Shown here: piece by piece, positions 31,548-52,965 of the stretch | Numbering within the stretch: position 1 is the first letter of the stretch | Layout: every line of letters begins with the position of its first letter | Assembly: GCA_965202685.1 (NCBI GenBank) | Contig: OZ241853.1 | Span: 133,333 to 197,332, forward strand | Length of the DNA: 64,000 nt | Source of the DNA: Gammaproteobacteria bacterium | GTDB taxonomy: Bacteria; Pseudomonadota; Gammaproteobacteria; Eutrophobiales; Eutrophobiaceae | Direction: 5' to 3' | Made by a program: the position numbers and the translations under genes | Notes under the pieces: generated by a model | Databases searched by the model: none | Told to the model about the DNA's origin: nothing | What the model saw: only the letters and a program-made list of their open reading frames with translations

Positions 31548-31660
31548 GGCGTAGCTTGGGGTCGGGCTTTTTACGACACGCTGTAAATCCATCCTTGGAC
31601 GCTCTCGGCGCGGCCATCCAGGCCGCGCAGGGTCTTAAAAGCCCGACCCCAAGCTACGCC
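31548..31660 (-). repeat. PAL element copy 2
   Basis: Same TIRs as copy 1 (gtagcttggggtcgggcttttt...aaaagcccgaccccaagctacgcc). Confidence 0.8.
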
Positions 31661-31682
31661 CATGCCCTTATCCCACAACACT

Positions 31683-31807
31683 TTTAGCGACGGAAATTTT
31701 TCGTCAGGCAAGCGGCATGATGAGCGAGGTCAGGAGTGTATATTAAATACATGACTGACCAAGCGAGGAAATGCCGCGATGCATGGCGGAAAATTAACAA
31801 GCTAAAA
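31683..31807 (-). repeat. R unit, inverted orientation
   Basis: ttttagcgacggaaatttttcgtcagg...atggcggaaaattaacaagctaaaa. The following gene ORF reads through it in-frame. Confidence 0.7.
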
Positions 31808-31819
31808 TATAATGGCGGC

Positions 31820-33817: not shown

Positions 33818-33937
33818 CTTGTTAGTTTTCCGCCATGCGTCCTGGCGTTTCTTTGCTCGGGCGGTCATGTGCTATTTGCACACTCCCTTCCTCGCTCATC
33901 ACGCCAGTTGCCTGACGAAAAACTTCCGTCGCTAAAA
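33812..33937 (+). repeat. R unit
   Basis: Starts at the stop codon of paralogue 3 (ttttTAGcttgttag). Confidence 0.7.
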
Positions 33938-33940
33938 TGG

Positions 33941-34059
33941 TTGTAGTTTTCCGTTATTCTGCCTGGCGCTTCCGCGTTCAGTCAGTCATGTGCCATTACG
34001 CACACTCCTTCCTTCACTTGTCGCGCCAGTTGCCTAACGAAAAACTTCCGTCGCTAAAA
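33941..34059 (+). repeat. R unit, R2 variant
   Basis: ttttccgttattctgcctggcgcttccgcgttcagtcagtcatgtgccat...cgaaaaacttccgtcgctaaaa. Confidence 0.65.
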
Positions 34060-34112
34060 TGGTTGCGGGATAACGGAAAACTAACAAGCTAAAAGGGATG
34101 ACGGGGTGCATA

Positions 34113-34238
34113 GGCGTAGCTTGGGGGCGGGCTTTTAAGACCCTGTGCGGCCCGGATGGCCGCACCGAGAGCGTCCAGGGATGGATTTACAGCGTGTCGT
34201 AAAAAGCCCGCCCCCAAGCTAGGCCCTCGGGTGTCGCG
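34113..34238 (+). repeat. PAL element copy 3
   Basis: gcgtagcttgggggcgggcttttaagaccc...gtcgtaaaaagcccgcccccaagctaggccctcgggtgtcgcgc. Confidence 0.8.
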
Positions 34239-34306
34239 CCAGTTGCCTGACGAAAAACTTCGGTCGCTAAAACACACTTGCAGGCTCCGTTATTTTGCCT
34301 GGCGCA

Positions 34307-34320
34307 TTGACCGCTATAAT
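34307..34320 (+). promoter_or_regulatory. TTGACCGCTATAAT promoter-like motif
   Basis: TATAAT lies 6 nt upstream of ATG 34327. Confidence 0.3.
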
Positions 34321-34326
34321 AGCGAC

Positions 34327-36330
34327 ATGGCGGCAATGACCAATTACATTGGAGAACGGGCCCGATTCCATAGTCTAGCGCTGATCGTATGCGCTTTGTT
34401 CCTCCTTGCGGGCCTCGCCATCGTCGATAACTACGGCGTTTCGATAGACACAGGCAACCAACGGCATATCGCCCTCAGCACCCTCAACTATGTCCTGCAT
34501 GACGACCCAGGCCGGTTGCGAGTGGCCGTTGACCGCTTCACCGGCGCCGCCTTCGAGGCGCCCCTGCTGCTGTTGACGGAACGGGTCCTGGGGCTGGAAG
34601 ACCCGCGCCATGTCTATTTGGCCCGCCATGTCCTGACGCACCTGTTTTTTCTAATCGGCGGGTTCTGTTGCTATCTGTTGGCGTTTCGATTGTCCGGCGA
34701 CCGGCTGATCGCGCTGTTGGTCATGGCGCTGTTCCTCCTGTCCCCGCGCATCTACGCTCATTCCTTCTTCAACAGCAAGGATCCGGTGGCTGCCAGCGCC
34801 TTCGTCATGGCCTTGCTCGTTGTGTGTCGCGCCTTTGACAAGGACTCGGTGGGGGCCTATCGGTGGTGCGGGGCAATGGCGGGACTTGTCGTCAACCTGC
34901 GCATCTTGGGCATCGCCCTGTTTGCCATCGTGTTGGTCTTTCAGGCCTGGGCCTGGTTCCGGGCCGGGGGGGGCGCGGCGCGGCGGCGGGTTGTAGTGAC
35001 CACTGGCGCTTTCGCCCTGTGGGGAATCGTTGTCTTGTTCATCAGCCTGCCCTATCTCTGGGGCGACCCCGCAGGGCGGCTGGCGGAAATGGTCGAGATT
35101 ATGCGCGATCATCCTACCGTTTATCTGGTATTGTTCCGGGGGCAGGTGTTTTCCGGCGCGGCGTTGCCTTGGGACTATATGTTGCGCTGGTTCGCCATCA
35201 GCCAGCCGCCGGTGACCTTGTTGTTGGGGCTGTTGGGCCTAGTGGCCCTGGGCCTTGCCGCCAGGGGCGTCGTCAGACGCGGCGCAGGCGCCGGGCCCGG
35301 GCCGGGCGCGGCGTGGGGCGCCGCCGAGTTGCGCCTCGGCATATTGCTCGCAACCTGCTTTGCGTTGCCCCTGGTTGCCTTTGCGCTGTTGCGACCCACC
35401 TCCCTCAATGACTGGCGGCATTTTTATTTCCTGCACGGGCCTTTTTGCCTGCTGGCGACCTTCGCCCTGATGGGGTTGCGCCAATTGCCGGCGCGGGGGT
35501 TGCAAAGAAAATGGCTCGGCGGCGCGGCCTGCGCGCTGACAGCGGCGGGGCTGGGCGTCGTGGCGGTCCAGATGGCGCAGATCCATCCCCACCAATATCT
35601 CTATTTCAACTTTTTTGTGGACCGCAAAACGCCGGAACAGTTGCGAGCCCGCTACTCTATGGATTACTGGAACATGGCGATGCGACAGGGCTATGAACTC
35701 GCCCTGCGCCATGCGCCTTCCTCTCCCGCCATCAACCTGAAATCCTTAGCCACGCCCATAGGAAACCCCTTGCAGGGCCTCGTCCGCAATGTGGGGATCC
35801 TGCCCGCCACGGCCCGAGCCCGGCTCACTTACGACCCGGCCCGAAACCCGGACTTCTATCTGGGCGGTTTCTCGTTGGACGATTATTTCCCCCCCGTTCT
35901 CCACCAAATCAAGGTCTATAACAACACCATTATGACCGTGGCCACGCCGGATTTGTCCCGAGTTGACCCGGCGGTGGCGGACGAGTACCGCGCCTTGCTT
36001 CAGACAGCGACGGCGGGGGAACCGGTGGCGCGGGAGAGCGGCTATGAAGTGTACCGGCGCGGCTCGCAGTTAGCATGGGTGAAAGAGGGATGCGGGCCGG
36101 GCGAGTTGTTGCGCCTGTTCCGGCTGGCGTTCTATCCAGTGGATGCGAGCTATGTGTCCCCGCACCGCCAACGGCAGGGCAACAATGTCAGGCTGGTCTA
36201 TGGGGCGCGGCTGGACGGCAAGTGCCTGGGGGCGGCGCGGTTGCCGGAGTACGCGGTGTCCCGGGTGCGGTTGCGCCAGCGGTCGGATGAGGGGGGGAAG
36301 CTATGGGAAACCGAATTCCACCTTTTTTAG
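34327..36330 (+). CDS. array paralogue 4 (667 aa; ORF open from 34156)
   Basis: MAAMTNYIGERARFHS... Its central ~1 kb is near-identical to paralogue 14. Its C-terminal domain is near-identical to paralogue 3. Confidence 0.75.
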   Translation: MAAMTNYIGERARFHSLALIVCALFLLAGLAIVDNYGVSIDTGNQRHIALSTLNYVLHDDPGRLRVAVDRFTGAAFEAPLLLLTERVLGLEDPRHVYLARHVLTHLFFLIGGFCCYLLAFRLSGDRLIALLVMALFLLSPRIYAHSFFNSKDPVAASAFVMALLVVCRAFDKDSVGAYRWCGAMAGLVVNLRILGIALFAIVLVFQAWAWFRAGGGAARRRVVVTTGAFALWGIVVLFISLPYLWGDPAGRLAEMVEIMRDHPTVYLVLFRGQVFSGAALPWDYMLRWFAISQPPVTLLLGLLGLVALGLAARGVVRRGAGAGPGPGAAWGAAELRLGILLATCFALPLVAFALLRPTSLNDWRHFYFLHGPFCLLATFALMGLRQLPARGLQRKWLGGAACALTAAGLGVVAVQMAQIHPHQYLYFNFFVDRKTPEQLRARYSMDYWNMAMRQGYELALRHAPSSPAINLKSLATPIGNPLQGLVRNVGILPATARARLTYDPARNPDFYLGGFSLDDYFPPVLHQIKVYNNTIMTVATPDLSRVDPAVADEYRALLQTATAGEPVARESGYEVYRRGSQLAWVKEGCGPGELLRLFRLAFYPVDASYVSPHRQRQGNNVRLVYGARLDGKCLGAARLPEYAVSRVRLRQRSDEGGKLWETEFHLF

Positions 36331-36355
36331 CTTGTTACATCCGCCATGCAACCTA

Positions 36356-36483
36356 GCGCGACACCCGAGGGCATAGCTTGGGGCAGGGCTTTTTACGACA
36401 CGCTGTGAATCCATCCCTGGACGCTCTCGGCGCGGCCATCCAGGCCGCGCAGGGTCTTAAAAGCCCTGCCCCAAGCTACGCCC
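36356..36483 (-). repeat. PAL element copy 4
   Basis: gcgcgacacccgagggcatagcttggggcagggcttttt...aaaagccctgccccaagctacgcc. Confidence 0.8.
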
Positions 36484-36503
36484 ATGCCCTTATCCCACAA
36501 CTA

Positions 36504-36629
36504 TTTTAGCGACGGAAGTTTTTCGTTAGGCAACTGGCGCGACAAGTGAAGGAAGGAGTGTGCATAAAGCACATGACTGACTGAACGCGGAAGCGCCAGG
36601 CAGAATAACGGAAAACTAACAAGCTAAAA
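36504..36629 (-). repeat. R unit (R2 variant), inverted
   Basis: ttttagcgacggaagtttttcgttaggcaactggcgcgacaagtgaagg...ggaaaactaacaagctaaaa. Confidence 0.65.
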
Positions 36630-36707
36630 TGAAAAACTTCCGTCGCTAAAACACACTCGCAGGCTCCGTTATCCCGCCTGGTGGATTGACCGCTATATAA
36701 TGGTGGC

Positions 36708-38687
36708 ATGTCCACAATAACAAGCCGCATTGGAGAACGGGTGCGGTTCCATCGCTTAGCGTTGATTGCATGGTGCCTGTTTTTGGTTACGGGCCTCGCC
36801 ATCGTCGATGACTACGGCGTCGCGCCGGATGCGGCAAACCAGTTTCTTACCTCCATCAACACCGTCAACTATGTTCTGCATGGGGACCAAACCCTGTTGC
36901 AAACCGTTGACCGCTTTTACGGCTCCGCTTTCGAGTTGCCCCTGTTGCTGTTGATGGAATGGGGCCTGGGGCTGGAAGACCCGCGCCATATCTATTTGGC
37001 CCGCCATGTCCTGATGCATCTGTTTTTTCTGCTTGGCGGGTTCTGTTGCTATCTGTTGGCGTTTCGATTGTCCGGCGACCGGCTGATCGCGCTGTTGGTC
37101 ATGTTGCTGTTTCTCCTGTCCCCGCGCCTCTACGCCCATTCCTTCTTCAACAGCAAGGATGCGGTGTTCGCCAGCGCCTTCGTCATGGCCTTGCTCTTTG
37201 CGAGCCGCGCCTTTGACAAGGACTCGGTGGGGGCCTATCGGTGGTGCGGGGCGGCGGCGGGGCTTCTCGTCAACCTGCGCGTCATGGGCGTGGTTCTGTT
37301 TGCCGTCGTGTTGGTCTTTCGGGCCTGGGCCTGGTTCCGGGCCGGGGGGGGCGCGGCGCGGCGGCGGGTTGTGGCGGCCACTGGGGTCTTTGCCCTGTGG
37401 GGGGGCCTTGTCTTGTTCATCAGCCTGCCCTACCTCTGGGGCGACCCCATAGGGCGGCTGGCGGAAATGCCAGCGGTGCTGGCCGATCATCCTATCGTTC
37501 TTCATCAATTGTTCCGCGGTCAGGCGTTTTCCAGCGCGGCATTGCCTTGGGACTACCTTCCGCGCTGGTTCGCCATCAGCCAGCCGCCGGTGACCTTATT
37601 GTTGGGCCTGTTGGGCCTAGTGGCCTTGGGCCTTGCCGCTGGGGGCGTCGTCAGGCGCGGCGCGGGCGCCGGGCCGGGGCGCGGTTTGGGCGCCGCCGAG
37701 TTGCGCTTCGGCGTCCTGCTGGCAACCTGCTTCGCGTTGCCCCTAGTTGCCTTTGTCCTGTTGCGGCCCAACACCCTCCATGGCTGGCGGCATTTTTATT
37801 TTCTGCATGGGCCTTTTTGCCTGCTGGCGACCTTCGCCCTGATGGGGTTGCGCCAGCTGTCGGTTCGGGGGTTGCGAAAAGGATGGCTCGGCGGCGCGGC
37901 GTGCGCGCTGACAGCGGCGGGGCTGGGCGCAGCGGCGGTGGAGATGACGCAGATCCATCCCCATCAGTATCTCTATTTCAACTTTCTGGTGGACCGGAAG
38001 ACCCCGGAAGGGTTGCGCGAGCGCTACGAGACGGATTATTGGAACATGATGTTGCGACAGGGCTATGAGTGGCTCCTGAAAGAGACCCCGGAGGCCGCCA
38101 TCAACATGGTGCCGCGGAGAGTTGAGGCGTTGGCGAACCTCAATCGCAATGTGCAGATTCTCCCCCCGGCGGCCCGCAACCGGTTGACCTACGATCCGAA
38201 ACGCGACCCGGATTTCTATGTAGGCGGAAGCGGAAGCATAAGGCAAAGCCTCGAAGAACCTTTCCCTCCCGTTCTCCATCGGTTCAAGGTCTATAACAAC
38301 ACGATGTTGACCATTTCCACGCCGGATTTGTCCCGGGTTGACCCGGCGGTGGCGGATGCGTATCGGGCTTTGCATTGGACAGCGACGGCGGGGGCGCCAA
38401 CGGCGCGGGCGGGCGGCTATGAAGTCCACCGGCACGGCTCGCGGCTGGCGTGGGTGAAGGAGGCTTGCGAGCCTGGGGCGCTGAGGCGCAAGTTCCAGCT
38501 GGCTCTTTACCCGGCGGACGCGGGCCGTTTGCCGACCCATCGCCAGAAATGGGGCTACTTTACAATCAGAGCCTCTGGGGTGCGGTTTGACGGCAAGTGC
38601 CTGGGGGCGCGACGACTGCCGGATTTCGCCCTAACCCGGATTCGCCTGGGGCAAAAGGGGAAGTGGGAAGTGGAGGTGCCTTTTTAG
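36708..38687 (+). CDS. array paralogue 5 (659 aa)
   Basis: MSTITSRIGERVRFHR... preceded by ggattgaccgctatataatggtggcATG. Confidence 0.75.
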   Translation: MSTITSRIGERVRFHRLALIAWCLFLVTGLAIVDDYGVAPDAANQFLTSINTVNYVLHGDQTLLQTVDRFYGSAFELPLLLLMEWGLGLEDPRHIYLARHVLMHLFFLLGGFCCYLLAFRLSGDRLIALLVMLLFLLSPRLYAHSFFNSKDAVFASAFVMALLFASRAFDKDSVGAYRWCGAAAGLLVNLRVMGVVLFAVVLVFRAWAWFRAGGGAARRRVVAATGVFALWGGLVLFISLPYLWGDPIGRLAEMPAVLADHPIVLHQLFRGQAFSSAALPWDYLPRWFAISQPPVTLLLGLLGLVALGLAAGGVVRRGAGAGPGRGLGAAELRFGVLLATCFALPLVAFVLLRPNTLHGWRHFYFLHGPFCLLATFALMGLRQLSVRGLRKGWLGGAACALTAAGLGAAAVEMTQIHPHQYLYFNFLVDRKTPEGLRERYETDYWNMMLRQGYEWLLKETPEAAINMVPRRVEALANLNRNVQILPPAARNRLTYDPKRDPDFYVGGSGSIRQSLEEPFPPVLHRFKVYNNTMLTISTPDLSRVDPAVADAYRALHWTATAGAPTARAGGYEVHRHGSRLAWVKEACEPGALRRKFQLALYPADAGRLPTHRQKWGYFTIRASGVRFDGKCLGARRLPDFALTRIRLGQKGKWEVEVPF

Positions 38688-38732
38688 CTTTTAGCTTGTT
38701 ACATCCGCCATCCTGCCTGGCGCGCCAACCAA

Positions 38733-38754
38733 GGCATAGCTTGGGGCAGGGCTT
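38733..38754. repeat. PAL element, truncated (left TIR only)
   Basis: ggcatagcttggggcagggctt followed by unrelated sequence. Confidence 0.5.
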
Positions 38755-38773
38755 ACTACTGGCCATTACCTAT

Positions 38774-38900
38774 TTTTTAGCGACGGAAGTTTTTCGTCAG
38801 GCAAGCGGCATGATGAGCGCGGGAGGGAGTGTATATTAAATACATGACCGACCGCGTGAAGAAATGCCGCGATGCATGGCGGAAAACTAACAAGCTAAAA
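38774..38900 (-). repeat. R unit, inverted, fused in-frame to paralogue 6
   Basis: ttttagcgacggaagtttttcgtcagg...gcatggcggaaaactaacaagctaaaa is directly joined to cgggcccgattccat of the gene. Confidence 0.7.
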
Positions 38901-40832
38901 CGGGCCCGATTCCATGGCTTGGCGTTGAGCGTGTGGGCCTTGTTCCTGATTACGGGCCTCGCCATCGTCGATGACTACAGCGTCGCGCCGGATGCGGCAG
39001 ACCAGCATGGTATCGGCAACAACACCCTCAACTATGTCCTGCATGACGACCAAACCCTTTTGCGAACCCATGACCGCTTCTACGGCGCCGCCTTCGAGGC
39101 GCCCCTGTTCCTATTGACGGAACGGGTCCTGGGGCTGGAAGACCCGCGCCATGTCTATCTGACCCGCCATGTCCTGACCCACCTGTTTTTTCTAATCGGC
39201 GGGTTCTGTTGCTATCTGTTGGCGCGGCGCTTGTCCGGCGACCGGCTGGTCGCGTTGTTGGTCATGTTGTTGTTCCTGCTGTCCCCGCGTCTCTACGCCC
39301 ATTCCTTCTTCAATGTCAGGGATCCAATGTTCGCCAGCGCCTTCGTCATGGCCCTGCTCTTTGTGAGCCGCGCCTTTGACAGGGACTCGGTGGGGGCCTA
39401 TCGGTGGGGCGGGATGGCAGTGGGACTTCTCGTCCACCTGCGCATCATGGGCGTGGTTCTGTTTGCCATCGTGTTGGTCTTTCGGGCCTGGGCCTGGTTT
39501 CGGACCGAAGGGGGCGCGGCGCGGCGGCGGATTGTGGCAACCACTGGCGCTTTCGCCCTGTGGGGGGGCCTTGTCTTGTTCGTCGGCCTGCCCTATCTCT
39601 GGGGCGACCCCGCAGGGCGGCTTTCAGAATATTGGATGGTGTTGGCCGATCATCCTGTCGTTCAACGCGAACTGTTCCGGGGTCAGGCGTTTTCCGGCGC
39701 GGCGTTGCCTTGGAATTATATGTTGCACTGGTTCGCCATCAGCCAGCCGCCGGTGACCTTGTTGTTGGGTCTGTTGGGCTTGGTGGCCTTGGGCCTTGCC
39801 ACTGGGGGCGTCGTCAGACGCGGCGCGGGCGCGGCATGGGGGGGTGCCGAATTGCGATTTGGCGTCTTGCTCGCAACCTGCTTCGTGTTGCCCCTGCTCG
39901 CCTTTGTCCTGTTGCGGCCCAACACCATCAATGGCTGGCGACATTTTTATTTCCTGCACGGGCCTTTTTGCCTGCTGGCGACCTTCGCCCTGATGGGGTT
40001 GCGCCAGCTGTCGGTTCAGGGGTTGCGAAAAAAATGGGTTGGCGGCGCGGCTGGCGCGCTGACAGCGGCGGGACTGGGCGCGACGGCGCTGGAGATGGCG
40101 CAGATCCATCCTAACCAGCATCTCTATTTCAACTTTTTTGTGGACCGAAAGACCCCGGAACGGCTAAACGAACGCTACGAGACGGATTACTGGAACATGA
40201 TGTTGCGGCAAGGGTATGAACACATCCTGCGGCAAGCGCCCTCTTCCACCATTAACATGAGGCCGCGAGCGTCAGCGAACAACCGCTATGTGCAGATCCT
40301 GCCGGCGGCGATCCGGAGCCGGTTCATCTACGACCCTGTTCGGGATCCGGATTTCTATCTAGTAAGAAACGCCGGAATTCCGCCGCCAGGCGCGCTTAAG
40401 GACTCTTTTCCCCCCGTCCTCCACCGGTTCAAGGTCTATAACAACACGGTGTTGACCGTATCCACGCCGGATTTGTCCCGGGTTGACCCGGCGGTGGCGG
40501 ATGAGTATCGGGTCTTGCATCGGGCGGCGACAGCGGGGGAACCGGTGGCTCGCGGGGGAGGCTTCGATGTGCGCCTGCATGGCAACCGGCTGGCGTGGGT
40601 GAAGGAGGCTTGCGAGCCTGGGGCGTTGATGCATCCGTTCCGGCTCAGGCTTTATCCGGCGAACGCGGGCCGTTTGCTGGCCCACCACCGGAAACGGGGC
40701 TACTTTACAATCAGCGCCAGCGGGGTGCGGTTTGACGGCAAGTGCCTGGGGGCGGCGCGGTTGCCGGATTTCGCCCTGGACCGGGTTCGCCTAGGGCAAC
40801 AAGGGAGGTGGGAAGTTGACATCCCTTTTTAG
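38829..40832 (+). CDS. array paralogue 6, 5'-end replaced (ORF starts inside an inverted R unit; no own promoter/ATG)
   Basis: The translation MYIKYMTDRVKKCRDAWRKTNKLK is derived from the R unit up to the junction 38900/38901. From RARFHG onward the protein is a normal paralogue. Confidence 0.55.
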   Translation: MYIKYMTDRVKKCRDAWRKTNKLKRARFHGLALSVWALFLITGLAIVDDYSVAPDAADQHGIGNNTLNYVLHDDQTLLRTHDRFYGAAFEAPLFLLTERVLGLEDPRHVYLTRHVLTHLFFLIGGFCCYLLARRLSGDRLVALLVMLLFLLSPRLYAHSFFNVRDPMFASAFVMALLFVSRAFDRDSVGAYRWGGMAVGLLVHLRIMGVVLFAIVLVFRAWAWFRTEGGAARRRIVATTGAFALWGGLVLFVGLPYLWGDPAGRLSEYWMVLADHPVVQRELFRGQAFSGAALPWNYMLHWFAISQPPVTLLLGLLGLVALGLATGGVVRRGAGAAWGGAELRFGVLLATCFVLPLLAFVLLRPNTINGWRHFYFLHGPFCLLATFALMGLRQLSVQGLRKKWVGGAAGALTAAGLGATALEMAQIHPNQHLYFNFFVDRKTPERLNERYETDYWNMMLRQGYEHILRQAPSSTINMRPRASANNRYVQILPAAIRSRFIYDPVRDPDFYLVRNAGIPPPGALKDSFPPVLHRFKVYNNTVLTVSTPDLSRVDPAVADEYRVLHRAATAGEPVARGGGFDVRLHGNRLAWVKEACEPGALMHPFRLRLYPANAGRLLAHHRKRGYFTISASGVRFDGKCLGAARLPDFALDRVRLGQQGRWEVDIPF

Positions 40833-40952
40833 CTTGTTAATTTTCCGCCATGCATCGCGGCGTTTCCTCGCTCGGTCAGTCATGTATCTGATATACACTC
40901 CTTCCCGCGCTCATCACGCCGCTTGCCTGACGAAAAATTTCCGTCGCTAAAA
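40827..40952 (+). repeat. R unit
   Basis: ttttagcttgttaattttccgccatgcatcgcggcgtttcctcgctcggtcag...ccgtcgctaaaa. A hybrid leader/R2 fragment follows it (40953-41075). Confidence 0.7.
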
Positions 40953-41090
40953 CACACTTGCAGGCTCCGTTATTTTGCCTGGCGCTTCCGCGTTCAGTCA
41001 GTCATGTGCTGTTTGCACACTCCTTCCTTCACTTGTCGCGCCAATTGCCTAACGAAAAACTTCCGTCGCTAAAAATGTTTAAGGGCATAG

Positions 41091-41216
41091 GCGTAGCTTG
41101 GGGTGGGGCTTTTAAGACCCTGCGCGGCCTGGATGGCCGCGCCGAGAGCGTCCAGGGATGGATTCACAGCGTGTCGTAAAAAGCCCCACCCCAAGCTAGG
41201 CCCTCGGGTGTCGCGC
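41091..41216 (+). repeat. PAL element copy 6
   Basis: gcgtagcttggggtggggcttttaagaccc...gtcgtaaaaagccccaccccaagctaggccctcgggtgtcgcgc. Confidence 0.8.
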
Positions 41217-41319
41217 TAGGCAAAATAGTGGAAAATTAACAAGCTAAAACTGACCGAGCGAGGAAACGCCGCGCCACATGGCGAAAGCTAACAAGCTAAA
41301 AGGGTAATATGGCGACATT

Positions 41320-43302
41320 ATGGTGGCTATGATAAATCACATTGGAGAACAAGCCCGGTTCCATCGCTTAGCGTTGATTGCATGGTCCCTGTTCTTAATC
41401 GTGGGCCTCGCCATCGTCGATGACTACGGCGTCTCGTATGATGCGAAAGAGCAGTTTCTTACCTCCATCAACACCCTCAACTATGTCCTGCATGGGGACC
41501 AAACCCTGTTGCAAACCCATAACCGCTTCTACGGCGCCGCTTTCGAGTTGTCGCTGCTGCTGTTGATGGAAGGGGTCCTGGGGCTGGAAGACCCGCGCCA
41601 TGTCTATTTGACCCGCCATGTCCTGACGCACTTGTTGTTTCTAATCGGCGGGTTCTGTTGCTATCTGCTGGCGCGGCGCTTGTCCGGCGACCGGCTGGTG
41701 GCGTTGTTGGTCATGGCACTGTTCCTGCTGTCCCCGCGCCTGTACGCCCATTCCTTCTTCAACAGCAAGGATGCGGTGTTCGCCAGCGCCTTCGTCATGG
41801 CCTTGCTCTTTGCGAGCCGCGCCTTTGACAGGGACTCGTTGGGGGCCTATCGGTGGTGCGGGGCGGCGGCGGGGCTTCTCATCCACCTGCGCGTCATGGG
41901 CGTGGTTCTGTTTGCCGTCATGTTGGTCTTTCGGGCCTGGGCCTGGTTTCGGGCCGGGGGGGACGCGGCGCGGCGGCGGGTGGCGGCGACCGCTGGCGCT
42001 TTCGCCCTGTGGGGTGTCCTTGTCTTGTTCATCAGCCTGCCCTATCTCTGGGGCGACCCCGCAGGGCGGCTGGCGGAAATGGTCGTGGTGTTGGCCGACC
42101 ATCCTACGGTTCTTCATCAATTGTTCCGCGGTCAAGTGTTTTCCAGCGCGGCGTTGCCTTGGGATTATGTGTTGCGCTGGTTCGCCATCAGCCAGCCGCC
42201 GGTGACCTTGTTGTTGGGGCTGTTGGGCCTGGGAGCTTTGGGCCTTGCCGCTGGGGGCGTCGTCAGACGCGGCGCGGGCGCCGGGCCGGGGCGTGGCTTG
42301 GGGGGCGCCGAGTTGCGCTTCGGCGTCTTGCTCGCAACCTGCTTCGTGTTGCCCCTGCTCGCCTTTATCCTGTTGCGGCCTAACACCATCAATGGCTGGC
42401 GGCATTTTTATTTCCTGCACGGGCCTTTTTGCCTGCTGGCGACCTTCGCCCTGATGGGGTTGCGCCAGTTGCCGGCGAGGGGGGCGCGAAAAGGATGGGT
42501 TGGGGGCGCGGCTTGCGCATTGACAGTGGCGGGACTGGGCGCGGCGGCATTGGAGATGGCGCAAATCCATCCCCACCAATATCTTTATTTCAACTTTTTA
42601 GCGGACAGGAAGACCCCGGAAGGGTTGCGCGAGCGCTACGAGACATACTGGAACATGATGTTGCGGCAAGGGTATGAACACATCCTGCGGCAAGGACCCG
42701 CTTCCACCATTAACATGAGGCCGCGAGTGCTTCACTCGCGGGCTGACATCAACCGCAATGTGGAGATTCTCCCGGCGGCGGCCCGAAGCCGGTTCACCTA
42801 CGACCCCGCTCGGGACCCGGATTTCTACCTGGCAAGAAACGCCGGAATTCCGCCGCTAGGCGCGCTTAAGGACTCTTTTCCTCCCGTCCTCCACCGGTTC
42901 AAGGTCTATAACAACACAATGATGACAGTTTCCACGCCGGATTTGTCCCGGGTTGACCCGGCGGTGGCGGATGAGTATCGGGCTTTGCATCGGGCGGCGA
43001 CGGCGGGGGAACCAGCGGCCCGGGCGGGGGGCTTCGATGCGCACCTGCATGGCAACCGGCTGGCGTGGGTAAAGGAGGCTTGCGAGCCTGGGGCGTTGAT
43101 GTCGCCGTTCCGGCTCAGGCTTTACCCGGCGGACGCGGGCCGTTTGCCGACCCATCACCAGAAACGGGGCTACTTTACAATCAGCGCCTCTGGGGTGCGG
43201 TTTGACGGCAAGTGCCTGGGGGCGGCGCGGTTGCCGGATTTCGCCCTGGCCCGGATTCGCCTGGGGCAAGCAGGGAGGTGGGAAGTTGACATCCCCTTTT
43301 AG
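41320..43302 (+). CDS. array paralogue 7 (660 aa)
   Basis: MVAMINHIGEQARFHR... preceded by an inverted R terminal fragment and gggtaatatggcgacattATG. Confidence 0.75.
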   Translation: MVAMINHIGEQARFHRLALIAWSLFLIVGLAIVDDYGVSYDAKEQFLTSINTLNYVLHGDQTLLQTHNRFYGAAFELSLLLLMEGVLGLEDPRHVYLTRHVLTHLLFLIGGFCCYLLARRLSGDRLVALLVMALFLLSPRLYAHSFFNSKDAVFASAFVMALLFASRAFDRDSLGAYRWCGAAAGLLIHLRVMGVVLFAVMLVFRAWAWFRAGGDAARRRVAATAGAFALWGVLVLFISLPYLWGDPAGRLAEMVVVLADHPTVLHQLFRGQVFSSAALPWDYVLRWFAISQPPVTLLLGLLGLGALGLAAGGVVRRGAGAGPGRGLGGAELRFGVLLATCFVLPLLAFILLRPNTINGWRHFYFLHGPFCLLATFALMGLRQLPARGARKGWVGGAACALTVAGLGAAALEMAQIHPHQYLYFNFLADRKTPEGLRERYETYWNMMLRQGYEHILRQGPASTINMRPRVLHSRADINRNVEILPAAARSRFTYDPARDPDFYLARNAGIPPLGALKDSFPPVLHRFKVYNNTMMTVSTPDLSRVDPAVADEYRALHRAATAGEPAARAGGFDAHLHGNRLAWVKEACEPGALMSPFRLRLYPADAGRLPTHHQKRGYFTISASGVRFDGKCLGAARLPDFALARIRLGQAGRWEVDIPF

Positions 43303-43351
43303 CTTTTAGCTTGTTAGTTTTCCGTTATCCTTCCTGCGCGATCCTCGATGG

Positions 43352-43463
43352 CATAGCTTGGGGCAGGGCTTTTTACGACACGCTGTGAATCCATCCCTGG
43401 ACGCTCTCGGCGCGGCCATCCAGGCCGCGCAGGGTCTTAAAAGCCCTGCCCCCAAGCTACGCC
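43352..43463 (-). repeat. PAL element copy 7
   Basis: gcatagcttggggcagggctttttacgacacgctgtgaatcc...cccaagctacgcc. Confidence 0.8.
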
Positions 43464-43465
43464 CC

Positions 43466-43591
43466 TTTTAGCTTGTTAATTTTCCGCCATGCGGCGCGGC
43501 ATTTCTTCGCTCGGTCAGTCATGTATTTGATATACACTCCTTCCCTCGCTCATCATGCCGCTTGCCTGACGAAAAATTTCCGTCGCTAAAA
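43466..43591 (+). repeat. R unit
   Basis: ttttagcttgttaattttccgccatgcggcgcggcatttcttcgctcggtcag...ccgtcgctaaaa. Confidence 0.7.
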
Positions 43592-43674
43592 TAGTCGCGG
43601 GCTCCGTTATCCTGCCTGGCAAAAATTTCCGTCGCTAAAACACACTCGCAGGCTCCGTTATTTTGCCTAGCGCA

Positions 43675-43688
43675 TTGACCGCTATAAT
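43675..43688 (+). promoter_or_regulatory. TTGACCGCTATAAT promoter-like motif
   Basis: TATAAT at 43683-43688. ATG at 43695. Confidence 0.3.
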
Positions 43689-43694
43689 GGCGGC

Positions 43695-45695
43695 ATGGCG
43701 GCAACGATAAATCGCATTGGAGAACGGATCCGGTTCCATCGCTTAGCGTTGATTGCGGGCGCACTATTCTTAATCGTGGGCCTCGCCATCGTCGATGACT
43801 ACGGCGTCTCGCCGGATGCGGGAGACCAGTTTCTTATCACCATCGACACCCTCAACTATGTCCTGCATGGGAACCCAGGCGAGTTAGGAGTGCTTGCTCA
43901 CCGCTTCACTGGCGTCGCCTTCGAGGCGCCCCTGTTGCTGTTGATGGAATGGGTCCTGGGGCTGGAAGACCCGCGCCATATCTATTTAACCCGCCATGTC
44001 CTGATGCACCTGTTTTTTCTGCTTGGCGGGTTCTGTTGCTATCTGTTGGCGTTTCGCTTGTCCGGCGACCGGCTGGTCGCGCTGTTGGTCATGTTGCTGT
44101 TCCTGTTGTCCCCGCGCCTCTACGCCCATTCCTTCTTCAACAGCAAGGATCCGGTGGCTGCCAGCGCCTTCGTCATGGCCTTGCTCTTTGCGAGCCGCGC
44201 CTTTGACAAGGACTCCTTGGGGGCCTACCGGTGGTGCGGGGCAATGGCGGGACTTGTCGTCAACCTGCGCATCTTGGGCATCGCCCTGTTTGCCATCGTG
44301 TTGGTCTTTCAGGCCTGGGCCTGGTTCCAGGCCGGGGGGGGCGCGGCGCGCCGACAGGTGGCAACGGCCACTGGGGTTTTTGCCCTGTGGGGTGTCCTTG
44401 TCTTGTTCATCAGCCTGCCCTATCTCTGGGGCGACCCCGCAGGGCGGCTGGCGGAAATGGTCGCGATTATGCGCGATCATCCTACCGTTCATCGAGAATT
44501 GTTCCGGGGTCAAGTGTTTTCCAGCGCGGCGTTGCCTTGGGACTATATGTTGCGCTGGTTCGCCATCAGCCAGCCGCCGGTGACCTTGTTGTTGGGGTTG
44601 TTGGGCCTGGGAGCCTTGGGTCTCGCCGCTGGGGGCGTCGTCAGACGCGGCGCGGACGCCGGGCCGGGCGCGGCATGGGGCGCCGCCGAGTTGCGCTTCG
44701 GCGTCCTGCTCGCAACCTGCTTTGCGTTGCCCATGGTTGCCTTTGCGCTGTTGCGACCCACCTCCCTCACTGGCTGGCGGCATTTTTATTTCCTGCACGG
44801 GCCTTTTTGCCTGTTGGCGACCTTCGCCCTGATGAGGTTGCGCCAGCTGCCGGTTCGGGGGGTGCGAAAAGGATGGCTCGGCGGCGCGGCTTGCGCACTG
44901 ACGGCGGCGGGGCTGGGCGCGGCGGCGTTGGAGATGGCGCAGATCCATCCCCACCAATATCTTTATTTCAACTTTTTAGCGGACCGGAAGACCCCGGAAC
45001 GGTTGCGCGAGCGCTACGAGACAGATTACTGGAACATGGTGTTGCGACAGGGCTATGAATGGATCCTGAAAGAAACCCCGGAGGCCGCCATCAACATGAG
45101 GCCGCGGGGAGTTGATGCGTTGGCGGACATCAACCATAATGTGCAGATTCTCCCCCCGGCGGCCCGCAACCGCTTCACTTACGATCCGAAACGCGACCCG
45201 GATTTCTATTTAGGCGGAAGCGGAAGCGGAAACACAAACACAAGGCAAGGCCCCCTGCTCAAAGATCCTTTCCCTCCCGTTCTTCACCGGTTCAAGGTCT
45301 ATAACAACACGATGTTGACCGTGTCCACGCCGGATTTGTCCCGGGTTGACCCGGCGATGGCGGATACGTATCGGGCTTTGCATCGGGCGGCGACAGCAAG
45401 GGAACCGGCGGCCCGGGCGGGGGGCTTCGATGTGCACCTGCATGGCGACCGGCTGGCGTGGGTGAAGGAGGCTTGCGAGCCCGGGGCGCTGAGGCGCGAG
45501 TTCCGGCTGGCTCTTTACCCGGCGGACGCGAGCCTCTTGCTGGCCCATCACCAGAAACGGGGCTACTTTACAATCAGCGCCTCTGGGGTGCGATTTGACG
45601 GCAAGTGCCTGGGGGCGGCGCGGTTGCCGGACTTCGCCTTAACCCGGATTCGCCTGGGGCAACGAGGGAAGTGGGAAGTGGAGGTGCCGCTATAA
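43695..45695 (+). CDS. array paralogue 8 (666 aa)
   Basis: MAATINRIGERIRFHR... The stop TAA lies inside the TATAAT of the next copy (ccgcTATAAt). Confidence 0.75.
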   Translation: MAATINRIGERIRFHRLALIAGALFLIVGLAIVDDYGVSPDAGDQFLITIDTLNYVLHGNPGELGVLAHRFTGVAFEAPLLLLMEWVLGLEDPRHIYLTRHVLMHLFFLLGGFCCYLLAFRLSGDRLVALLVMLLFLLSPRLYAHSFFNSKDPVAASAFVMALLFASRAFDKDSLGAYRWCGAMAGLVVNLRILGIALFAIVLVFQAWAWFQAGGGAARRQVATATGVFALWGVLVLFISLPYLWGDPAGRLAEMVAIMRDHPTVHRELFRGQVFSSAALPWDYMLRWFAISQPPVTLLLGLLGLGALGLAAGGVVRRGADAGPGAAWGAAELRFGVLLATCFALPMVAFALLRPTSLTGWRHFYFLHGPFCLLATFALMRLRQLPVRGVRKGWLGGAACALTAAGLGAAALEMAQIHPHQYLYFNFLADRKTPERLRERYETDYWNMVLRQGYEWILKETPEAAINMRPRGVDALADINHNVQILPPAARNRFTYDPKRDPDFYLGGSGSGNTNTRQGPLLKDPFPPVLHRFKVYNNTMLTVSTPDLSRVDPAMADTYRALHRAATAREPAARAGGFDVHLHGDRLAWVKEACEPGALRREFRLALYPADASLLLAHHQKRGYFTISASGVRFDGKCLGAARLPDFALTRIRLGQRGKWEVEVPL

Positions 45696-45704
45696 TATGG
45701 CGGC

Positions 45705-47729
45705 ATGGCGGCAATGACAAATCGCATTGGAGAACGGGCCCGATTCCATAGTCTGGCACTGGTCGTGTGGTGCCTGTTTTTGATTACGGGCCTCGTCATC
45801 GTCGATGACTACGGCGTCTCGTGGGATACGGAAATCCAGCGTTTTGTCGCCATCAACACCGTCAACTATGTCCTGCATAGCGACCCTGCCCTGTTACACA
45901 ATGACGTTGATCACTTCTACGGCGCCGCCTTCGAGTTGCCCCTGTCCCTGTTGACGGAACGGATCCTGGGGCTAGAAGACCTGCGCCATGTCTATTTGGC
46001 CCGCTATGTCCTGACGCACCTGTTGTTTCTAATCGGCGGGTTCTGTTGCTATCTGTTGACGCGGCGCTTGTCCGGCGACCGGCTGATCGCGCTGTTAGTC
46101 ATGCTACTGTTCCTGCTGTCCCCGCGTCTTTACGCCCATTCCTTTTTCGACACCAAGGATGCGGTGTTCGCCAGCGCCTTCGTCATGGCCTTGCTCGTTG
46201 TGAGTTGCGCCTTTGACAGGGATTCGGTGGGGGCCTATCGGGGGTGCGGGGCGGCGGCGGGGCTTCTCATCAACCTGCGCATCATGGGCGTGGTTCTGTT
46301 TGCCGTCGTGTTGGTCTTTCGGACCTGGGCCTGGTTCCGGGCCGAGGGGAGCGCGGCGCGCCAACGGATTGTGGCGACCACTGGGGTCTTTGCCCTGTGG
46401 GGGGCCTTGTCTTTGTTCATCAGCCTGCCCTATCTCTGGGGCGACCCCGCAGGGCGTCTTTCAGAATATTGGATAGTGTCGGCCGACCATCCTAGCTACC
46501 ACGGCCACCAATTGTTCCGGGGTCAAGTGTTTTCCAGCGCGGCGTTGCCTTGGGATTATGTGTTGCACTGGTTCGTCATCAGCCAGCCGCCGGTGACCTT
46601 GTTGTTGGGTCTGTTGGGCCTAGTGGCCCTGGGCCTTGCCGCTGGGGGCGTCGTCAGACGCGGCGCAGGCGCCGGGCCGGGCGCGGCATGGGGCGCCGCC
46701 GAGTTGCGCTTCGGCGTCCTGCTGGCAACCTGCTTTGCGTTGCCCCTGGTTGCCTTTGTCCTGTTGCGGCCTAACACCATCAATGGCTGGCGGCATTTTT
46801 ATTTCCTGCACGGACCTTTTTGCCTGCTGGCGACCTTCGCCCTGATGGGGTTGCGCCAGCTGTCGGTTCGGGGGTTGCGAAAAGAATGGGTTGGCAGCGC
46901 GGCTTGCGCGCTGACGGCGGCGGGGCTGATCGTCGTGGCGGTCCAGGCGGGGCTGATCGTCGTGGCGGTCCAGATGGCGCGACTCCATCCCCATCAATAT
47001 CTCTATTTCAACTTCTTGGCGGACCGGAAGACCCCGGAACGGTTGCGCGAGCGCTACGAGATGGATTACTGGAACATGATGTGGCGACAGGGCTATGAGT
47101 GGCTCCTGAAAGAGACCCCGGAGGCCGCCATCAACATGAGGCCGCGGAGAGTTGATGCGTTGGCGAACATCAACCGCAATGTGCAGATCCTCGCCCCAGC
47201 GGCCCGCAACCGGTTCACCTACGACCCGAAACGCGACCCAGATTTCTATTTAGGCGGAAGCGGAAACACAAACACAAGGCAAAACCCCCTGCTCAAAGAT
47301 CCTTTCCCTCCCGTTCTTCACCGGTTCAAGGTCTATAACAACACGATGTTGACCGTGTCCACGCCGGATTTGTCCCGGGTTGACCCGGCGGTGGCGGATG
47401 AGTATCGGGCTTTGCATCGGGCGGCGACGGCGGGGGAACCGGCGGCGCGGGCGGGGGGCTTCGATGCGCACCTGCATGGCGACCGGCTGGCGTGGGTGAA
47501 GGAGGCTTGCGAGCCCGGGGCGCTGAGGCGCAAGTTCCAGCTGGCTCTTTACCCGGCGGACGCGGGCCGTTTGCCGGCCCAGCACCGGAAACGGGGCTAT
47601 TTTACAATCAGCGCCTCTGGGGTGCGGTTTGATGGCAAGTGCCTGGGGGCGGCGCGGTTGCCGGACTTCGCCCTAACCCGGATTCGCCTGGGGCAGCCAG
47701 GGAAGTGGGAAGTTGACATCCCCTTTTAG
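45705..47729 (+). CDS. array paralogue 9 (674 aa) with an in-frame 27-bp tandem duplication
   Basis: MAAMTNRIGERARFHS... The duplicated peptide is AGLIVVAVQ (46934-46987). Confidence 0.75.
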   Translation: MAAMTNRIGERARFHSLALVVWCLFLITGLVIVDDYGVSWDTEIQRFVAINTVNYVLHSDPALLHNDVDHFYGAAFELPLSLLTERILGLEDLRHVYLARYVLTHLLFLIGGFCCYLLTRRLSGDRLIALLVMLLFLLSPRLYAHSFFDTKDAVFASAFVMALLVVSCAFDRDSVGAYRGCGAAAGLLINLRIMGVVLFAVVLVFRTWAWFRAEGSAARQRIVATTGVFALWGALSLFISLPYLWGDPAGRLSEYWIVSADHPSYHGHQLFRGQVFSSAALPWDYVLHWFVISQPPVTLLLGLLGLVALGLAAGGVVRRGAGAGPGAAWGAAELRFGVLLATCFALPLVAFVLLRPNTINGWRHFYFLHGPFCLLATFALMGLRQLSVRGLRKEWVGSAACALTAAGLIVVAVQAGLIVVAVQMARLHPHQYLYFNFLADRKTPERLRERYEMDYWNMMWRQGYEWLLKETPEAAINMRPRRVDALANINRNVQILAPAARNRFTYDPKRDPDFYLGGSGNTNTRQNPLLKDPFPPVLHRFKVYNNTMLTVSTPDLSRVDPAVADEYRALHRAATAGEPAARAGGFDAHLHGDRLAWVKEACEPGALRRKFQLALYPADAGRLPAQHRKRGYFTISASGVRFDGKCLGAARLPDFALTRIRLGQPGKWEVDIPF

Positions 47730-47849
47730 CTTGTTAGTTTTCCGTTATCCTTCCTGGCGCTTCCGCGTTCAGTCAGTCATGTGCTGTTTGCACACTCCTT
47801 CCTTCACTTGTCGCGCCAGTTGCCTAACGAAAAACTTCCGTCGCTAAAA
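47724..47849 (+). repeat. R unit (R2 variant)
   Basis: ttttagcttgttagttttccgttatccttcctggcgcttccgcgttcagtcag...cgtcgctaaaa. Confidence 0.65.
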
Positions 47850-47912
47850 AGTGGTCAATGCGCCAGTTGCCTGACGGAAAATTTCCGTCGCTAAAAATGT
47901 TTAAGGGCATAG

Positions 47913-48038
47913 GCGTAGCTTGGGGTGGGGCTTTTAAGACCCTGCGCGGCCTGGATGGCCGCGCCGAGAGCGTCCAGGGATGGATTCACAGCGTGTCGTA
48001 AAAAGCCCCACCCCAAGCTAGGCCCTCGGGTGTCGCGC
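47913..48038 (+). repeat. PAL element copy 8
   Basis: Near-identical to copy 6. Confidence 0.8.
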
Positions 48039-48136
48039 TAGGCAAAATAGTGGAAAACTAACAAGCTAAAACTGACCGAGCGAGGAAACGCCGCGCCATA
48101 TGGCGGAAAATTAACAAGCTAAAATATAATGGCGGC

Positions 48137-50119: not shown

Positions 50120-50239
50120 CTTGTTAGTTTTCCGTTATCCTGCCTGGCGCTTCCGCGTTCAGTCAGTCATGTATTTGATATACACTCCTTCCCTCACTTG
50201 TCGCGCCAGTTGCCTGACGAAAAATTTCCGTCGCTAAAA
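50114..50239 (+). repeat. R unit (R/R2 hybrid)
   Basis: ttttagcttgttagttttccgttatcctgcctggcgcttccgcgttcagtcagtcatgtatttgatatacactcc...gctaaaa. Confidence 0.65.
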
Positions 50240-50295
50240 CACACTTGCAGGCTCGGTTATTTTGCCTGGCGTATTGACCGCTATAATATGGCGGC

Positions 50296-52300: not shown

Positions 52301-52301
52301 C

Positions 52302-52427
52302 TTTTAGCTTGTTAGTTTTCCGCCATGCGTCCTGGCGTTTCTTTGCTCGGGCGGTCATGTGCTATTTGCACACTCCCTTCCTCGCTCATCACGCCAGTTG
52401 CCTGACGAAAAACTTCCGTCGCTAAAA
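52302..52427 (+). repeat. R unit (first of two near-identical tandem copies)
   Basis: tagttttccgccatgcgtcctggcgtttctttgctcgggcggtcatgtgctatttgcacactccc...gctaaaa. Preceded by a 2x TTTTAGC microsatellite. Confidence 0.7.
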
Positions 52428-52430
52428 TGG

Positions 52431-52548
52431 TTGTAGTTTTCCGCCATGTGGCGCGGCGTTTCTTTGCTCGGGCGGTCATGTGCTATTTGCACACTCCCTT
52501 CCTCGCTCATCACGCCAGTTGCCTGACGAAAAACTTCCGTCGCTAAAA
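52431..52548 (+). repeat. R unit (second tandem copy); R fragments follow to 52690
   Basis: Near-identical to 52302-52427. Confidence 0.7.
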
Positions 52549-52693
52549 TGGTTGTAGTTTTCCGCCATGTGGCGCGGCGTTTCCTCGCTCGGTCAGTTTT
52601 AGCTCGTTAGTTTTCCGTTATCCTTCCTGGCGCTTCCGCGTTCAGTCAGTTTAGCTTGTTACATCCGCCATGCGTCTTGGCGGCCAAACTAGG

Positions 52694-52805
52694 GCGTAGC
52701 TTGGGGCAGGGCTTTTAAGACCCTGCGCGGCCCGGATGGCCGCGCCGAGAGCGTCCAGGGATGGATTTACAGCGTGTCGCAAAAGGCCCTGCCCCAAGCT
52801 ACACC
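52694..52805 (+). repeat. PAL element copy 9
   Basis: gcgtagcttggggcagggcttttaagaccc...gtcgcaaaaggccctgccccaagctacacc. Confidence 0.8.
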
Positions 52806-52807
52806 CC

Positions 52808-52930: not shown

Positions 52931-52965
52931 ACACACTTGCAGGCTCGGTTATTTTGCCTGGCGCA

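Follow-up and report, generated by a model that had tools for sequence, protein, structure and literature searches.

In silent-cassette antigenic variation, as in the pilE/pilS system of Neisseria and the vlsE/vls system of Borrelia, one expression locus is accompanied by promoterless, start-less partial cassettes. In the tandem lpl cluster of Staphylococcus aureus, 5′ and 3′ modules are reassorted by recombination within a conserved block inside the genes, while the intergenic region co-evolves with the adjoining 5′ coding segment (Tsuru and Kobayashi, 2008; PMC2568036). In-frame fusions of palindromic repeats to genes are also known, from the Rickettsia palindromic elements (RPEs) and from intragenic copies of ERIC (the enterobacterial repetitive intergenic consensus) (PMC10969869), and the Correia repeat-enclosed elements of Neisseria can create promoters at their ends (PMC2649163). 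Here, a stretch of 64,000 nucleotides from a gammaproteobacterium of the family Eutrophobiaceae (contig OZ241853.1, positions 133,333 to 197,332; hereafter, the window) was analyzed, which carries a tandem array of co-directional genes for predicted membrane glycosyltransferases, c1–c16, whose spacers are mosaics of two palindromic repeats, R and B. In two diverged members of the array, copies 6 and 13, the usual 5′ end of the gene is replaced by R-derived sequence at exactly the same nucleotide. Our preferred reading, to which we assign a probability of roughly 0.62, is that the two copies share one head-module allele, J1, of a recombining tandem array, and that the junction is a homology boundary.

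The array, the two junctions and the arrangement with which they were compared are located as follows.

27532..64000, plus strand: tandem array with 16 or more paralogues, each about 660 aa long (c1–c16; c16 is cut by the window end), from the list of open reading frames (ORFs) and their translations
31682..31822, plus strand: reference arrangement J0a of copy 3, in which reverse-oriented R, R(−), is followed by TATAAT-N6-ATG; copy 10 is arranged likewise at 48105–48139
38775..38900, plus strand: complete 126-bp R unit in reverse orientation, R(−), abutting copy 6 (blastn against the R reference; RNA hairpin of −64.8 kcal/mol, z = −10)
38881..38915, plus strand: J1 of copy 6, the left terminus of the reverse-oriented R joined to codon 11 (CGG GCC CGA TTC CAT = RARFH)
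55054..55162, plus strand: partial forward-oriented R, R(+), upstream of copy 13, followed by ATG 55164 and the linker gtcaattcaccgcttgcag
55186..55223, plus strand: J1 of copy 13, a 23-nt R-terminus fragment (55186–55208) fused to CGGGCCCGATTCCAT

In copy 6, the 20-mer GGAAAACTAACAAGCTAAAA occupies positions 38881–38900 and CGGGCCCGATTCCAT begins at 38901, placing the junction at 38900/38901, and the identical 35-mer recurs in copy 13 at 55189–55223, with the junction at 55208/55209. Re-reading of the sequence at both positions showed that the breakpoints lie exactly where the first-pass annotation of this DNA had put them. The fused 35-mer is limited to copies 6 and 13 among the 16 array gene starts, and the 20-mer itself has 26 matches in the window at ≤3 mismatches (0.01 expected). 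Copies 3 and 10 read gctaaaa, TATAATggcggcATGgcggcaatgacaaatcgcattggagaa and cgggcc in succession, and copies 6 and 13 have the same sequence minus exactly 42 bp, that is, the TATAAT box, 6 nt, and the ATG with the first 10 codons (MAAMTNRIGE). The loss of promoter and start codon noted earlier is therefore confirmed by the absent 42 bp, and the number of missing codons is 10 instead of about 11. Direct reading reveals at most AA as microhomology at the endpoints of the 42-bp deletion, and of a related 15-bp deletion described below, which gives no hint of slippage between direct repeats.

The sequence common to the two copies extends 23 nt upstream and 15 nt downstream of the breakpoint. They were described as substantially divergent downstream, which agrees with a nucleotide identity of 84%; they are not mutual nearest paralogues, each being closest to its own neighbor, copy 6 to c7 (88%) and copy 13 to c12 (87%). 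The inverted R sequence that had been reported at both genes is a whole 126-bp R(−) in copy 6, but just the 23-nt R-terminus fragment in copy 13.

To place J1 among the other 5′ ends, 54 gene starts were surveyed, taken from the window, the syntenic sister genome ERZ25068319 (loci L002, L008, and L019) and two further assemblies (L001 and L009). They were sorted as follows.

Head A, ttgaccgcTATAAT-N6-ATG: 18/54 (17 and one truncated variant)
Head J0b, R terminus followed by gggTAATAT-N6-ATG: 14/54
Head J0a, R terminus followed by TATAAT-N6-ATG: 5/54
Head J1, the junction of copies 6 and 13: 9/54
Head J2, R terminus followed by GGCTTGGCG, equal to J1 minus a further 15 bp: 3/54
Head JA, start codon provided by the ATG inside forward R: 3/54
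Head J3, R(−) body fused further in: 1/54
Unclassified head: 1/54

J1 is one of at least seven 5′ architectures in the array. The first-pass annotation had suggested looking for the junction in other strains, and the survey showed that it is not private to the window: besides the 9 of 54 starts, two additional J1 copies were found in L020 and L021, and the best 120 database homologues include 16 J1-type, 14 J2-type, and 4 J3-type N-termini. Canonical heads are in the majority, with 99 of 141 N-termini. Scans for the exact junction gave 0 matches in the genome_contigs collection, which does not include the source genome, and 0 in the JGI metagenomes, and the closest relatives in genome_contigs are 40% identical proteins from a Dehalococcoidia metagenome-assembled genome. 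J1 occurs in three upstream contexts, two R(−) subtypes and a copy-13-type linker, the latter recurring in L008, in L009 (twice), and in L019 (twice), and with three downstream codon versions, cgggcccga (RARFH), cggatacgg (RIRFH), and cgggtccgg (RVRFH). At least 14 body lineages were seen with both canonical and R-fused heads.

The same survey bears on whether the junction could be an artefact of repeats misjoined in a long-read assembly. The region is extremely repetitive and some copies carry homopolymer-associated frameshifts, but the same junction is present in five independent assemblies from different samples (ERZ25068319, ERZ25070167, ERZ26167708, ERZ23496018, and ERZ23495584), by which an artefact is effectively refuted.

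The sister genome is collinear with c2–c16 at 90–99% identity and was used to date the two junctions, with the following two features of the copy 6 region.

38682..38695, plus strand: (TTTTAGC)x2, located at the stop codon of copy 5 and the left terminus of R, where the replaced tract has its left limit
38696..38955, plus strand: tract in which copy 6 differs from its orthologue in alignments, comprising the entire spacer, R(−), the junction and, in the coding part, some 53 nt (first transmembrane helix)

The sister orthologue of copy 13 also carries J1, altered by a single synonymous substitution (CGG to AGG), indicating that the copy 13 junction is older than the strain split. The copy 6 orthologue (P0002) has a normal start, MFAMTNSIGE followed by RARFH. 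The copy-6 signature VAPDAADQHGIGNNT is also present in P0001, P0003, P0123, P0124, and P0126, all with canonical starts, and each of the six or seven canonical alleles of the copy 6 body lineage, P0002 included, has a different tail and first helix. These normally starting alleles argue against the junction being the ancestral gene structure of all strains, a possibility raised in the first-pass annotation.

The replaced tract of copy 6 is limited by (TTTTAGC)n on the left and by the conserved GLAIVDDY block on the right. Compared with the orthologue, copy 6 shows 10 differences in columns 25–53 and then near identity to column 220, and its replaced coding stretch matches c1, s2, and the J2 cassette. 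Spacer and head moved as one, the left boundary lying right after the copy 5 stop, and no linkage to the 3′ end of the upstream gene was seen; the sequence upstream of R(−) differs between the J1 copies of the window and those of L001. The copy 6 spacer has most 11-mers in common with the copy 3 spacer. We infer that copy 6 gained J1 later than copy 13, on a tract of about 260 bp. Exchange is not confined to this copy. When orthologues of the window and the sister genome are compared, 7 of 14 pairs disagree in head type. Within the gene bodies, 100-nt windows in which a paralogue is closer than the orthologue were found in copy 6 at columns 600–700 and 1300–1500, and in copy 13 at columns 500–700. 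Head exchange between gene bodies is frequent, with boundaries in the repeat and in the GLAIVDDY block.

An in-place inversion of R at copy 6 between the window and the sister genome was also considered and rejected, since the flanks do not fit the product of an inversion. Unlike in an invertible-promoter switch of the fimS type, the spacers of copy 6 and its sister are not simple inversions of each other, the two R orientations occur at different loci, and a scan of 20 flanking ORFs revealed no recombinase domain.

In the reading we prefer, homologous recombination between array members, either gene conversion or unequal exchange, would spread J1, which would mark the switch of homology from R to coding sequence. 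Exchange with a canonical copy would convert the coding side up to the breakpoint, and exchange with other R copies would convert the upstream side up to the breakpoint, which itself would never move. Because neither exchange shifts J1, identical breakpoints with diverged flanks would result, and the three upstream contexts and the RARFH, RIRFH, and RVRFH versions are as expected if the flanks recombine independently. J1 itself would have originated most simply by an in-frame loss of 42 bp from a copy-3-like arrangement, and it appears to have arisen rarely, perhaps once. Similar to the lpl cluster, the locus is an array of surface-related paralogues in which a conserved block, here GLAIVDDY, acts as exchange boundary and in which the history of the 5′ module is incongruent with that of the rest of the ORF (at least 14 lineages; 7 of 14 pairs); as in lpl, the spacer moves along with the 5′ coding segment next to it. 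It differs from lpl in that the products are GT-C membrane glycosyltransferases, the spacers consist of palindromic repeats, and some heads swap the start codon and N-terminal tail for repeat-derived sequence.

An identical breakpoint could also be produced by recurrent site-preferring events, with R as a mobile element or recombinase substrate hitting the GAA/CGG position and the copy 6 and copy 13 junctions being independent. We consider this unlikely. It would account for the R terminus ending precisely at ...GCTAAAA in J0a, J0b, J1, and J2, for J1 being found with three different downstream 15-mers and three upstream contexts, and for R being palindromic end to end, like a miniature inverted-repeat transposable element (MITE), and occurring in both orientations. 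However, the full R copies have no flanking target-site duplication, the breakpoints have no common target motif, and the displaced promoter, ATG, and 10 codons are absent and are not found on the other side of R. Further, in the sequence covered R occurs only within the arrays and at their immediate edges, it is absent from the JGI metagenomes scanned, and no transposase or recombinase gene was found among the ORFs scanned in the 27 kb beside the array. The exchanged tract of copy 6 moreover reaches 53 nt past the junction, which indicates recombination and not insertion. Two mechanisms had been offered in the first-pass annotation. The spread of a 5′ cassette by conversion is supported by the canonical copy 6 alleles, the 53 nt of co-transferred coding sequence, the 7 of 14 pairs, and the at least 14 lineages, while a site-preferring event is not needed by the data.

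A different polarity would follow if the R-type N-terminus (M..T[DN][RQ]ARKRQ[DN]AWRKT..) were the original head, R being derived from it and the MAAMTNRIGE head being derived as well; J1-like heads would in that case be ancestral structures that were kept or rebuilt. The first copy of the L018 array, which has unique DNA upstream, starts with MKHITNQARKRQNAWRKTT followed by WSLC, and about 52 nt of this head are homologous to R(−) without an R terminus. The body lineage of copy 13 has never been seen with a canonical head, and by direct reading the R(−) sequence ATGACCGACCGC resembles the canonical second-ATG region ATGACAAATCGC. On the other side, the copy 6 lineage has six or seven canonical alleles and J1 is found only in the window's allele, the majority of N-termini are canonical, and the R terminus ...taacaagctaaaa is part of J1 but missing from the L018 head. 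The distant homologues (40% identity) have unrelated tails and therefore set no polarity. An ancestral R-type head is, on balance, rather improbable.

Whether copies 6 and 13 are functional genes was judged from their reading frames, start signals, and constraint, for which the following features were used.

38832..38846, plus strand: TATATT-aaatac-ATG inside R(−) at copy 6, with the geometry of the canonical TATAAT-ggcggc-ATG
38844..40832, plus strand: copy 6 ORF, 662 aa from the ATG, intact; ratio of nonsynonymous to synonymous substitution rates (dN/dS) of 0.38 against the sister orthologue
55164..57176, plus strand: copy 13 ORF, 670 aa, intact; dN/dS of 0.32; identical to database protein P0072

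The copy 6 ORF opens at GTG 38829 or ATG 38844 (MTDRVKKCRDAWRKTNKLK followed by RARFH), and the copy 13 ORF at ATG 55164 (MVNSPLAGRKTNKLK followed by RARFH). The predicted N-termini are MTDRVKK... and MTDRVKKCRDAWR... for copy 6 and MVNSPLAGRK... for copy 13. A start inside R, as had been described for both, thus holds for copy 6 (ATG 38844); in copy 13 the ATG is not within an R unit but just beyond the upstream R(+). The exact 662-aa copy 6 protein starting from the R-internal ATG 38844 is present in the NCBI/ENA annotation, in the P0001 cluster. The dN/dS values against the sister orthologues, 0.38 for copy 6 and 0.32 for copy 13, fall among those of the canonical copies (0.24–0.50) and depart from neutrality (binomial p of about 2e-7 and 4e-7, respectively), and copy 13 carried J1 throughout its divergence from the sister strain.

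Consistently, the deletions that distinguish J1 and J2 (42, 15, and 57 bp) are multiples of three, J1, J2, and J3 are in frame with the R ATG, and no out-of-frame fusion of R to coding sequence was found among the surveyed starts. TATAWT-N6-ATG has 9 matches in the window, all at array gene starts, against 0.05 expected, and 14 of the 16 copies have a start of their own, either the canonical TATAAT-N6-ATG or a variant. Every start-supplying R(−) has TATATT together with an open frame, while unfused R copies mostly read TATGTC, TATATC, or TGCAAA at this place, and in 22 of 48 of them that frame is broken by stops or shifted (a 2-nt length difference). The copy-6-type R(−) would thereby supply a −10-like TATATT, 6 nt, and an ATG, a leaderless-type geometry as in the canonical start, and the copy 6 protein would exchange its 10-residue tail for a more basic one of 19 residues ahead of the same first transmembrane helix. 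By direct count the net charge is about +8 and +6 in the new tails and +3 in the canonical one; more basic tails fit a cytoplasmic tail ahead of helix 1.

Judged from these sequence features, copies 6 and 13 are probably expressed and not silent. The first-pass annotation had suggested that they may be silent or donor copies, as in antigenic-variation systems with promoterless cassettes. On such a reading they would be untranslated reservoirs, like pilS or vls, whose only role is to donate sequence to expressed copies. Their canonical TATAAT, ATG, and 10 codons are indeed gone, gene conversion among the copies is real, and the copy 13 ATG has no recognizable −10 or Shine–Dalgarno sequence; as in the silent-cassette systems, diverged arrayed copies undergo segmental gene conversion and some have no canonical promoter or 5′ end. 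But both ORFs are intact and full-length with an in-frame upstream ATG and are constrained like the canonical copies, copy 13 while carrying J1, and copy 6 is annotated as a protein. In contrast to the silent-cassette systems, there is no single expression site, since 14 of 16 copies have their own start, and every fusion type is in frame. The sole disrupted copy in the window, c11, is canonical-headed. A reservoir role for the two copies is accordingly very improbable, more so than an ancestral R-type head.

Several observations nevertheless weigh against our interpretation. The varied flanks of J1 would also fit its repeated formation at a preferred site, and the R terminus is complete in J0a, J0b, J1, and J2, as the defined end of a mobile element would be. 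That copy 6 gained J1, and that the other alleles did not lose it, rests on parsimony. Conversion from expressed copies could import a low dN/dS, and the association of TATATT and an open frame with fusion may stem from the shared ancestry of a single R subfamily, not from selection. A scan for the sigma-70 consensus found nothing at canonical or R(−) starts, so that the promoter reading is drawn from geometry, and the copy 13 ATG is preceded neither by a −10-like hexamer (−12 to −7) nor by a Shine–Dalgarno sequence. If copy 6 were transcribed from upstream, the R(−) hairpin (−65 kcal/mol) would bury its ATG.

The repeat R itself measures 126 bp, TTTTAGCTTGTTAGTTTTCCG...CGAAAAACTTCCGTCGCTAAAA, and is an imperfect palindrome from end to end with the termini TTTTAGC...GCTAAAA. 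As RNA it forms a single hairpin, with z = −10 in the (−) orientation and −7.3 or −4.4 in the (+) orientation. R mostly follows each gene in forward orientation, its TTTTAG being the stop codon of that gene, and the left terminus of a reverse-oriented R adjoins most gene starts. R has the terminal inverted repeats and the hairpin potential of a MITE, but it was not filed as one, since no target-site duplication surrounds the full-length R at 27350, 33812, 40827, 43466, 50114, and 61962 (flanks ...cccc on the left and caca or aaca on the right) and no dispersal was seen in the sequence covered. No copy of R or B was found by blastn in positions 1–27 kb of the window, copies in L008 and L009 lie only inside the arrays or no more than about 1.5 kb from the array ends, and a scan of the JGI metagenomes for the R terminus gave only chance matches in low-GC contigs. 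Rfam, tRNA, and sigma-70/terminator consensus scans of the region returned nothing informative, and no description of R or of the array was found in literature and Rfam searches.

Similar to the RPEs and ERIC, R is a palindromic element of about 126 bp with an internal ORF that is fused to genes in frame, and its size and imperfect palindrome are ERIC-like. However, RPEs insert internally into unrelated genes genome-wide, whereas R, in the sequence covered, is confined to the arrays of one gene family, replaces the 5′ end without target-site duplication, and also gives the upstream gene its stop (TTTTAG). As with the Correia elements, a small element bounded by inverted repeats lies beside genes and would form an RNA hairpin when transcribed through, but the promoter activity of R is predicted from the TATATT-N6-ATG geometry, and R contributes coding sequence and is not dispersed in the sequence covered.

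The second repeat, B, measures 115 bp, with perfect arms of 25 bp and an RNA hairpin of −78 kcal/mol (z = −9). It is present at 27233–27347 and in 11 more copies between 31.5 and 59.9 kb of the window, in both orientations, and its presence varies between orthologous spacers, B being found, for example, upstream of copy 13 in the sister genome and not in the window. Upstream of copy 6, a 19-nt filler, ACTACTGGCCATTACCTAT (38755–38773), separates a truncated B arm from R(−); it is unique, matching nothing else in the window or in the loci compared. The heptamer array (TTTTAGC)n, found where a gene's stop codon and the R left terminus meet, varies in unit number, with 2–3 units in the window against 9 in the c5/c6 spacer of the sister genome (L002 9802–9864); its other sites in the window are 43297–43310, 52295–52308, 54978–54998, and 57171–57184. 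The gene pairs c1/c2 and c8/c9 are only 9 nt apart (29505–29515 and 45695–45705); in c1/c2, cacttcTAGttttccgccATG makes R positions 12–26 serve as stop and start together, where the sister genome instead has about 450 bp of spacer. The 724-aa (34156–36330, c4) and 740-aa (52761–54983, c12) ORFs run upstream through B and R sequence (MAAPRASRDGFTACRKKPAPK...), an extension that is probably spurious, the canonical ATGs being at 34327 and 52986.

The array proteins are, by their sequence, GT-C/PMT_2-like membrane glycosyltransferases. Matches to Pfam PMT_2 were obtained for 21 of the 22 members of the family, the best with E 1.7e-9; the score of copy 13, 31.4 bits, exceeds the gathering cut-off of 26.1. 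An invariant D35 stands within an IVDDYG motif directly after transmembrane helix 1. No solved homologue was found in PDB sequence searches made with one protein and with a profile.

Poly-G tracts of 13–22 G were observed in the coding sequence of some paralogues, in the window at 51287–51308 (c11) and 49122–49134 (c10) and further in L008 (1594–1610), L001 (8701–8721, 13257–13272, and 15526–15544), L009 (8892–8908), and L019 (8807–8821). In c11, a tract of 22 G goes with a frameshift (ORFs 50296–51393 and 51227–52300), and the sister orthologue has 17 G and an intact ORF of 688 aa; split ORFs in L001 and L009 likewise coincide with poly-G tracts. These length differences reflect either slipped-strand phase variation or long-read homopolymer error.

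The array also differs between the strains in gene content and in divergence. Copy 10 (48137–50119) has no counterpart in the sister genome, where s9 is directly followed by s11 (L002 16803–20945), and c10 is 89% identical to c11; the two strains differ here in copy number. When the window (29.5–64 kb) is compared with the sister genome (L002 and L008), synonymous divergence drops along the array, from about 0.2 (c5 and c7) to 0.02 (c14 and c15) and 0.005 (c16), suggesting that the array's distal part has recently undergone homologous replacement between strains. The head classes of c1–c14 repeat with period 7, as A, short spacer, J0a, A, A, J1, and J0b, twice. A 7-gene segmental duplication was therefore considered as the origin of the two junctions, since copies 6 and 13 lie seven genes apart and the head classes of c1–c7 match those of c8–c14 in 7/7 cases (about 1e-4 by a hand permutation count, made post hoc). 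It was rejected because bodies and spacers are not nearest at i/i+7 and the pattern has no sister counterpart.

Among other genes, the 27 kb upstream of the array hold an aromatic meta-cleavage pathway, an MMPL/DUF1302/DUF1329 cluster, and GST, and the 20 flanking ORFs scanned across this stretch contain no recombinase or transposase domain. An ORF of 785 aa on the minus strand (11367–13724), which combines a domain of the reductive dehalogenase family (TIGR02486, E 3.6e-57) with a long extension at the N-terminus, adjoins the MMPL/DUF1302/DUF1329/BNR genes and the aromatic meta-cleavage set. Arrays of the glycosyltransferase family were found at further chromosomal sites. Those of L009 and L019 adjoin rsmA-pdxA-surA-lptD, that of L020 adjoins aspS, MMPL, mlaC, bolA, and murA, and that of L018 starts directly after polysaccharide-synthesis genes (GT2, Wzx, GT1, and Wzy-like); TonB-dependent receptor genes also adjoin arrays and, together with the lptD-surA-pdxA-rsmA cluster, point to a Gram-negative organism, probably a proteobacterium. 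The second array holds further J1 and J2 copies, and its P0020 is also present in the genome of the window.

The junction itself is explained by ordinary processes. It illustrates a point that applies to multigene arrays generally: where a repeat–gene junction is a homology boundary, recombination keeps the breakpoint while scrambling its flanks, so that a breakpoint held exactly in common does not count as evidence for site-specific insertion. It also shows a palindromic repeat used repeatedly as the predicted start codon and N-terminal tail of a membrane enzyme family. What is new is the combination and its setting, in which an array-restricted palindrome would give stop, start, and N-terminal tail as exchangeable heads of a large GT-C family.

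For the organism, a bacterium of about 3 Mb with several arrays (at least 16 copies in the window) of rapidly reshuffled GT-C glycosyltransferases represents an undescribed system. The arrays are a plausible engine of surface-glycan diversity, with relevance to the evasion of phages or predators, and with its head swapping, poly-G tracts, heptamer variable-number repeat, and copy-number differences the array looks like a contingency system for surface-glycan enzymes. A bolder and doubtful extension is that R acts as an array-specific expression module for combinatorial glycan switching, the (−) orientation providing a leaderless promoter, a start, and a basic tail, and the (+) orientation a stop and a hairpin. 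If this were true, head swaps, poly-G tracts, and (TTTTAGC)n would decide which of roughly 25–30 paralogues a cell expresses, which would amount to programmed glycan variation.

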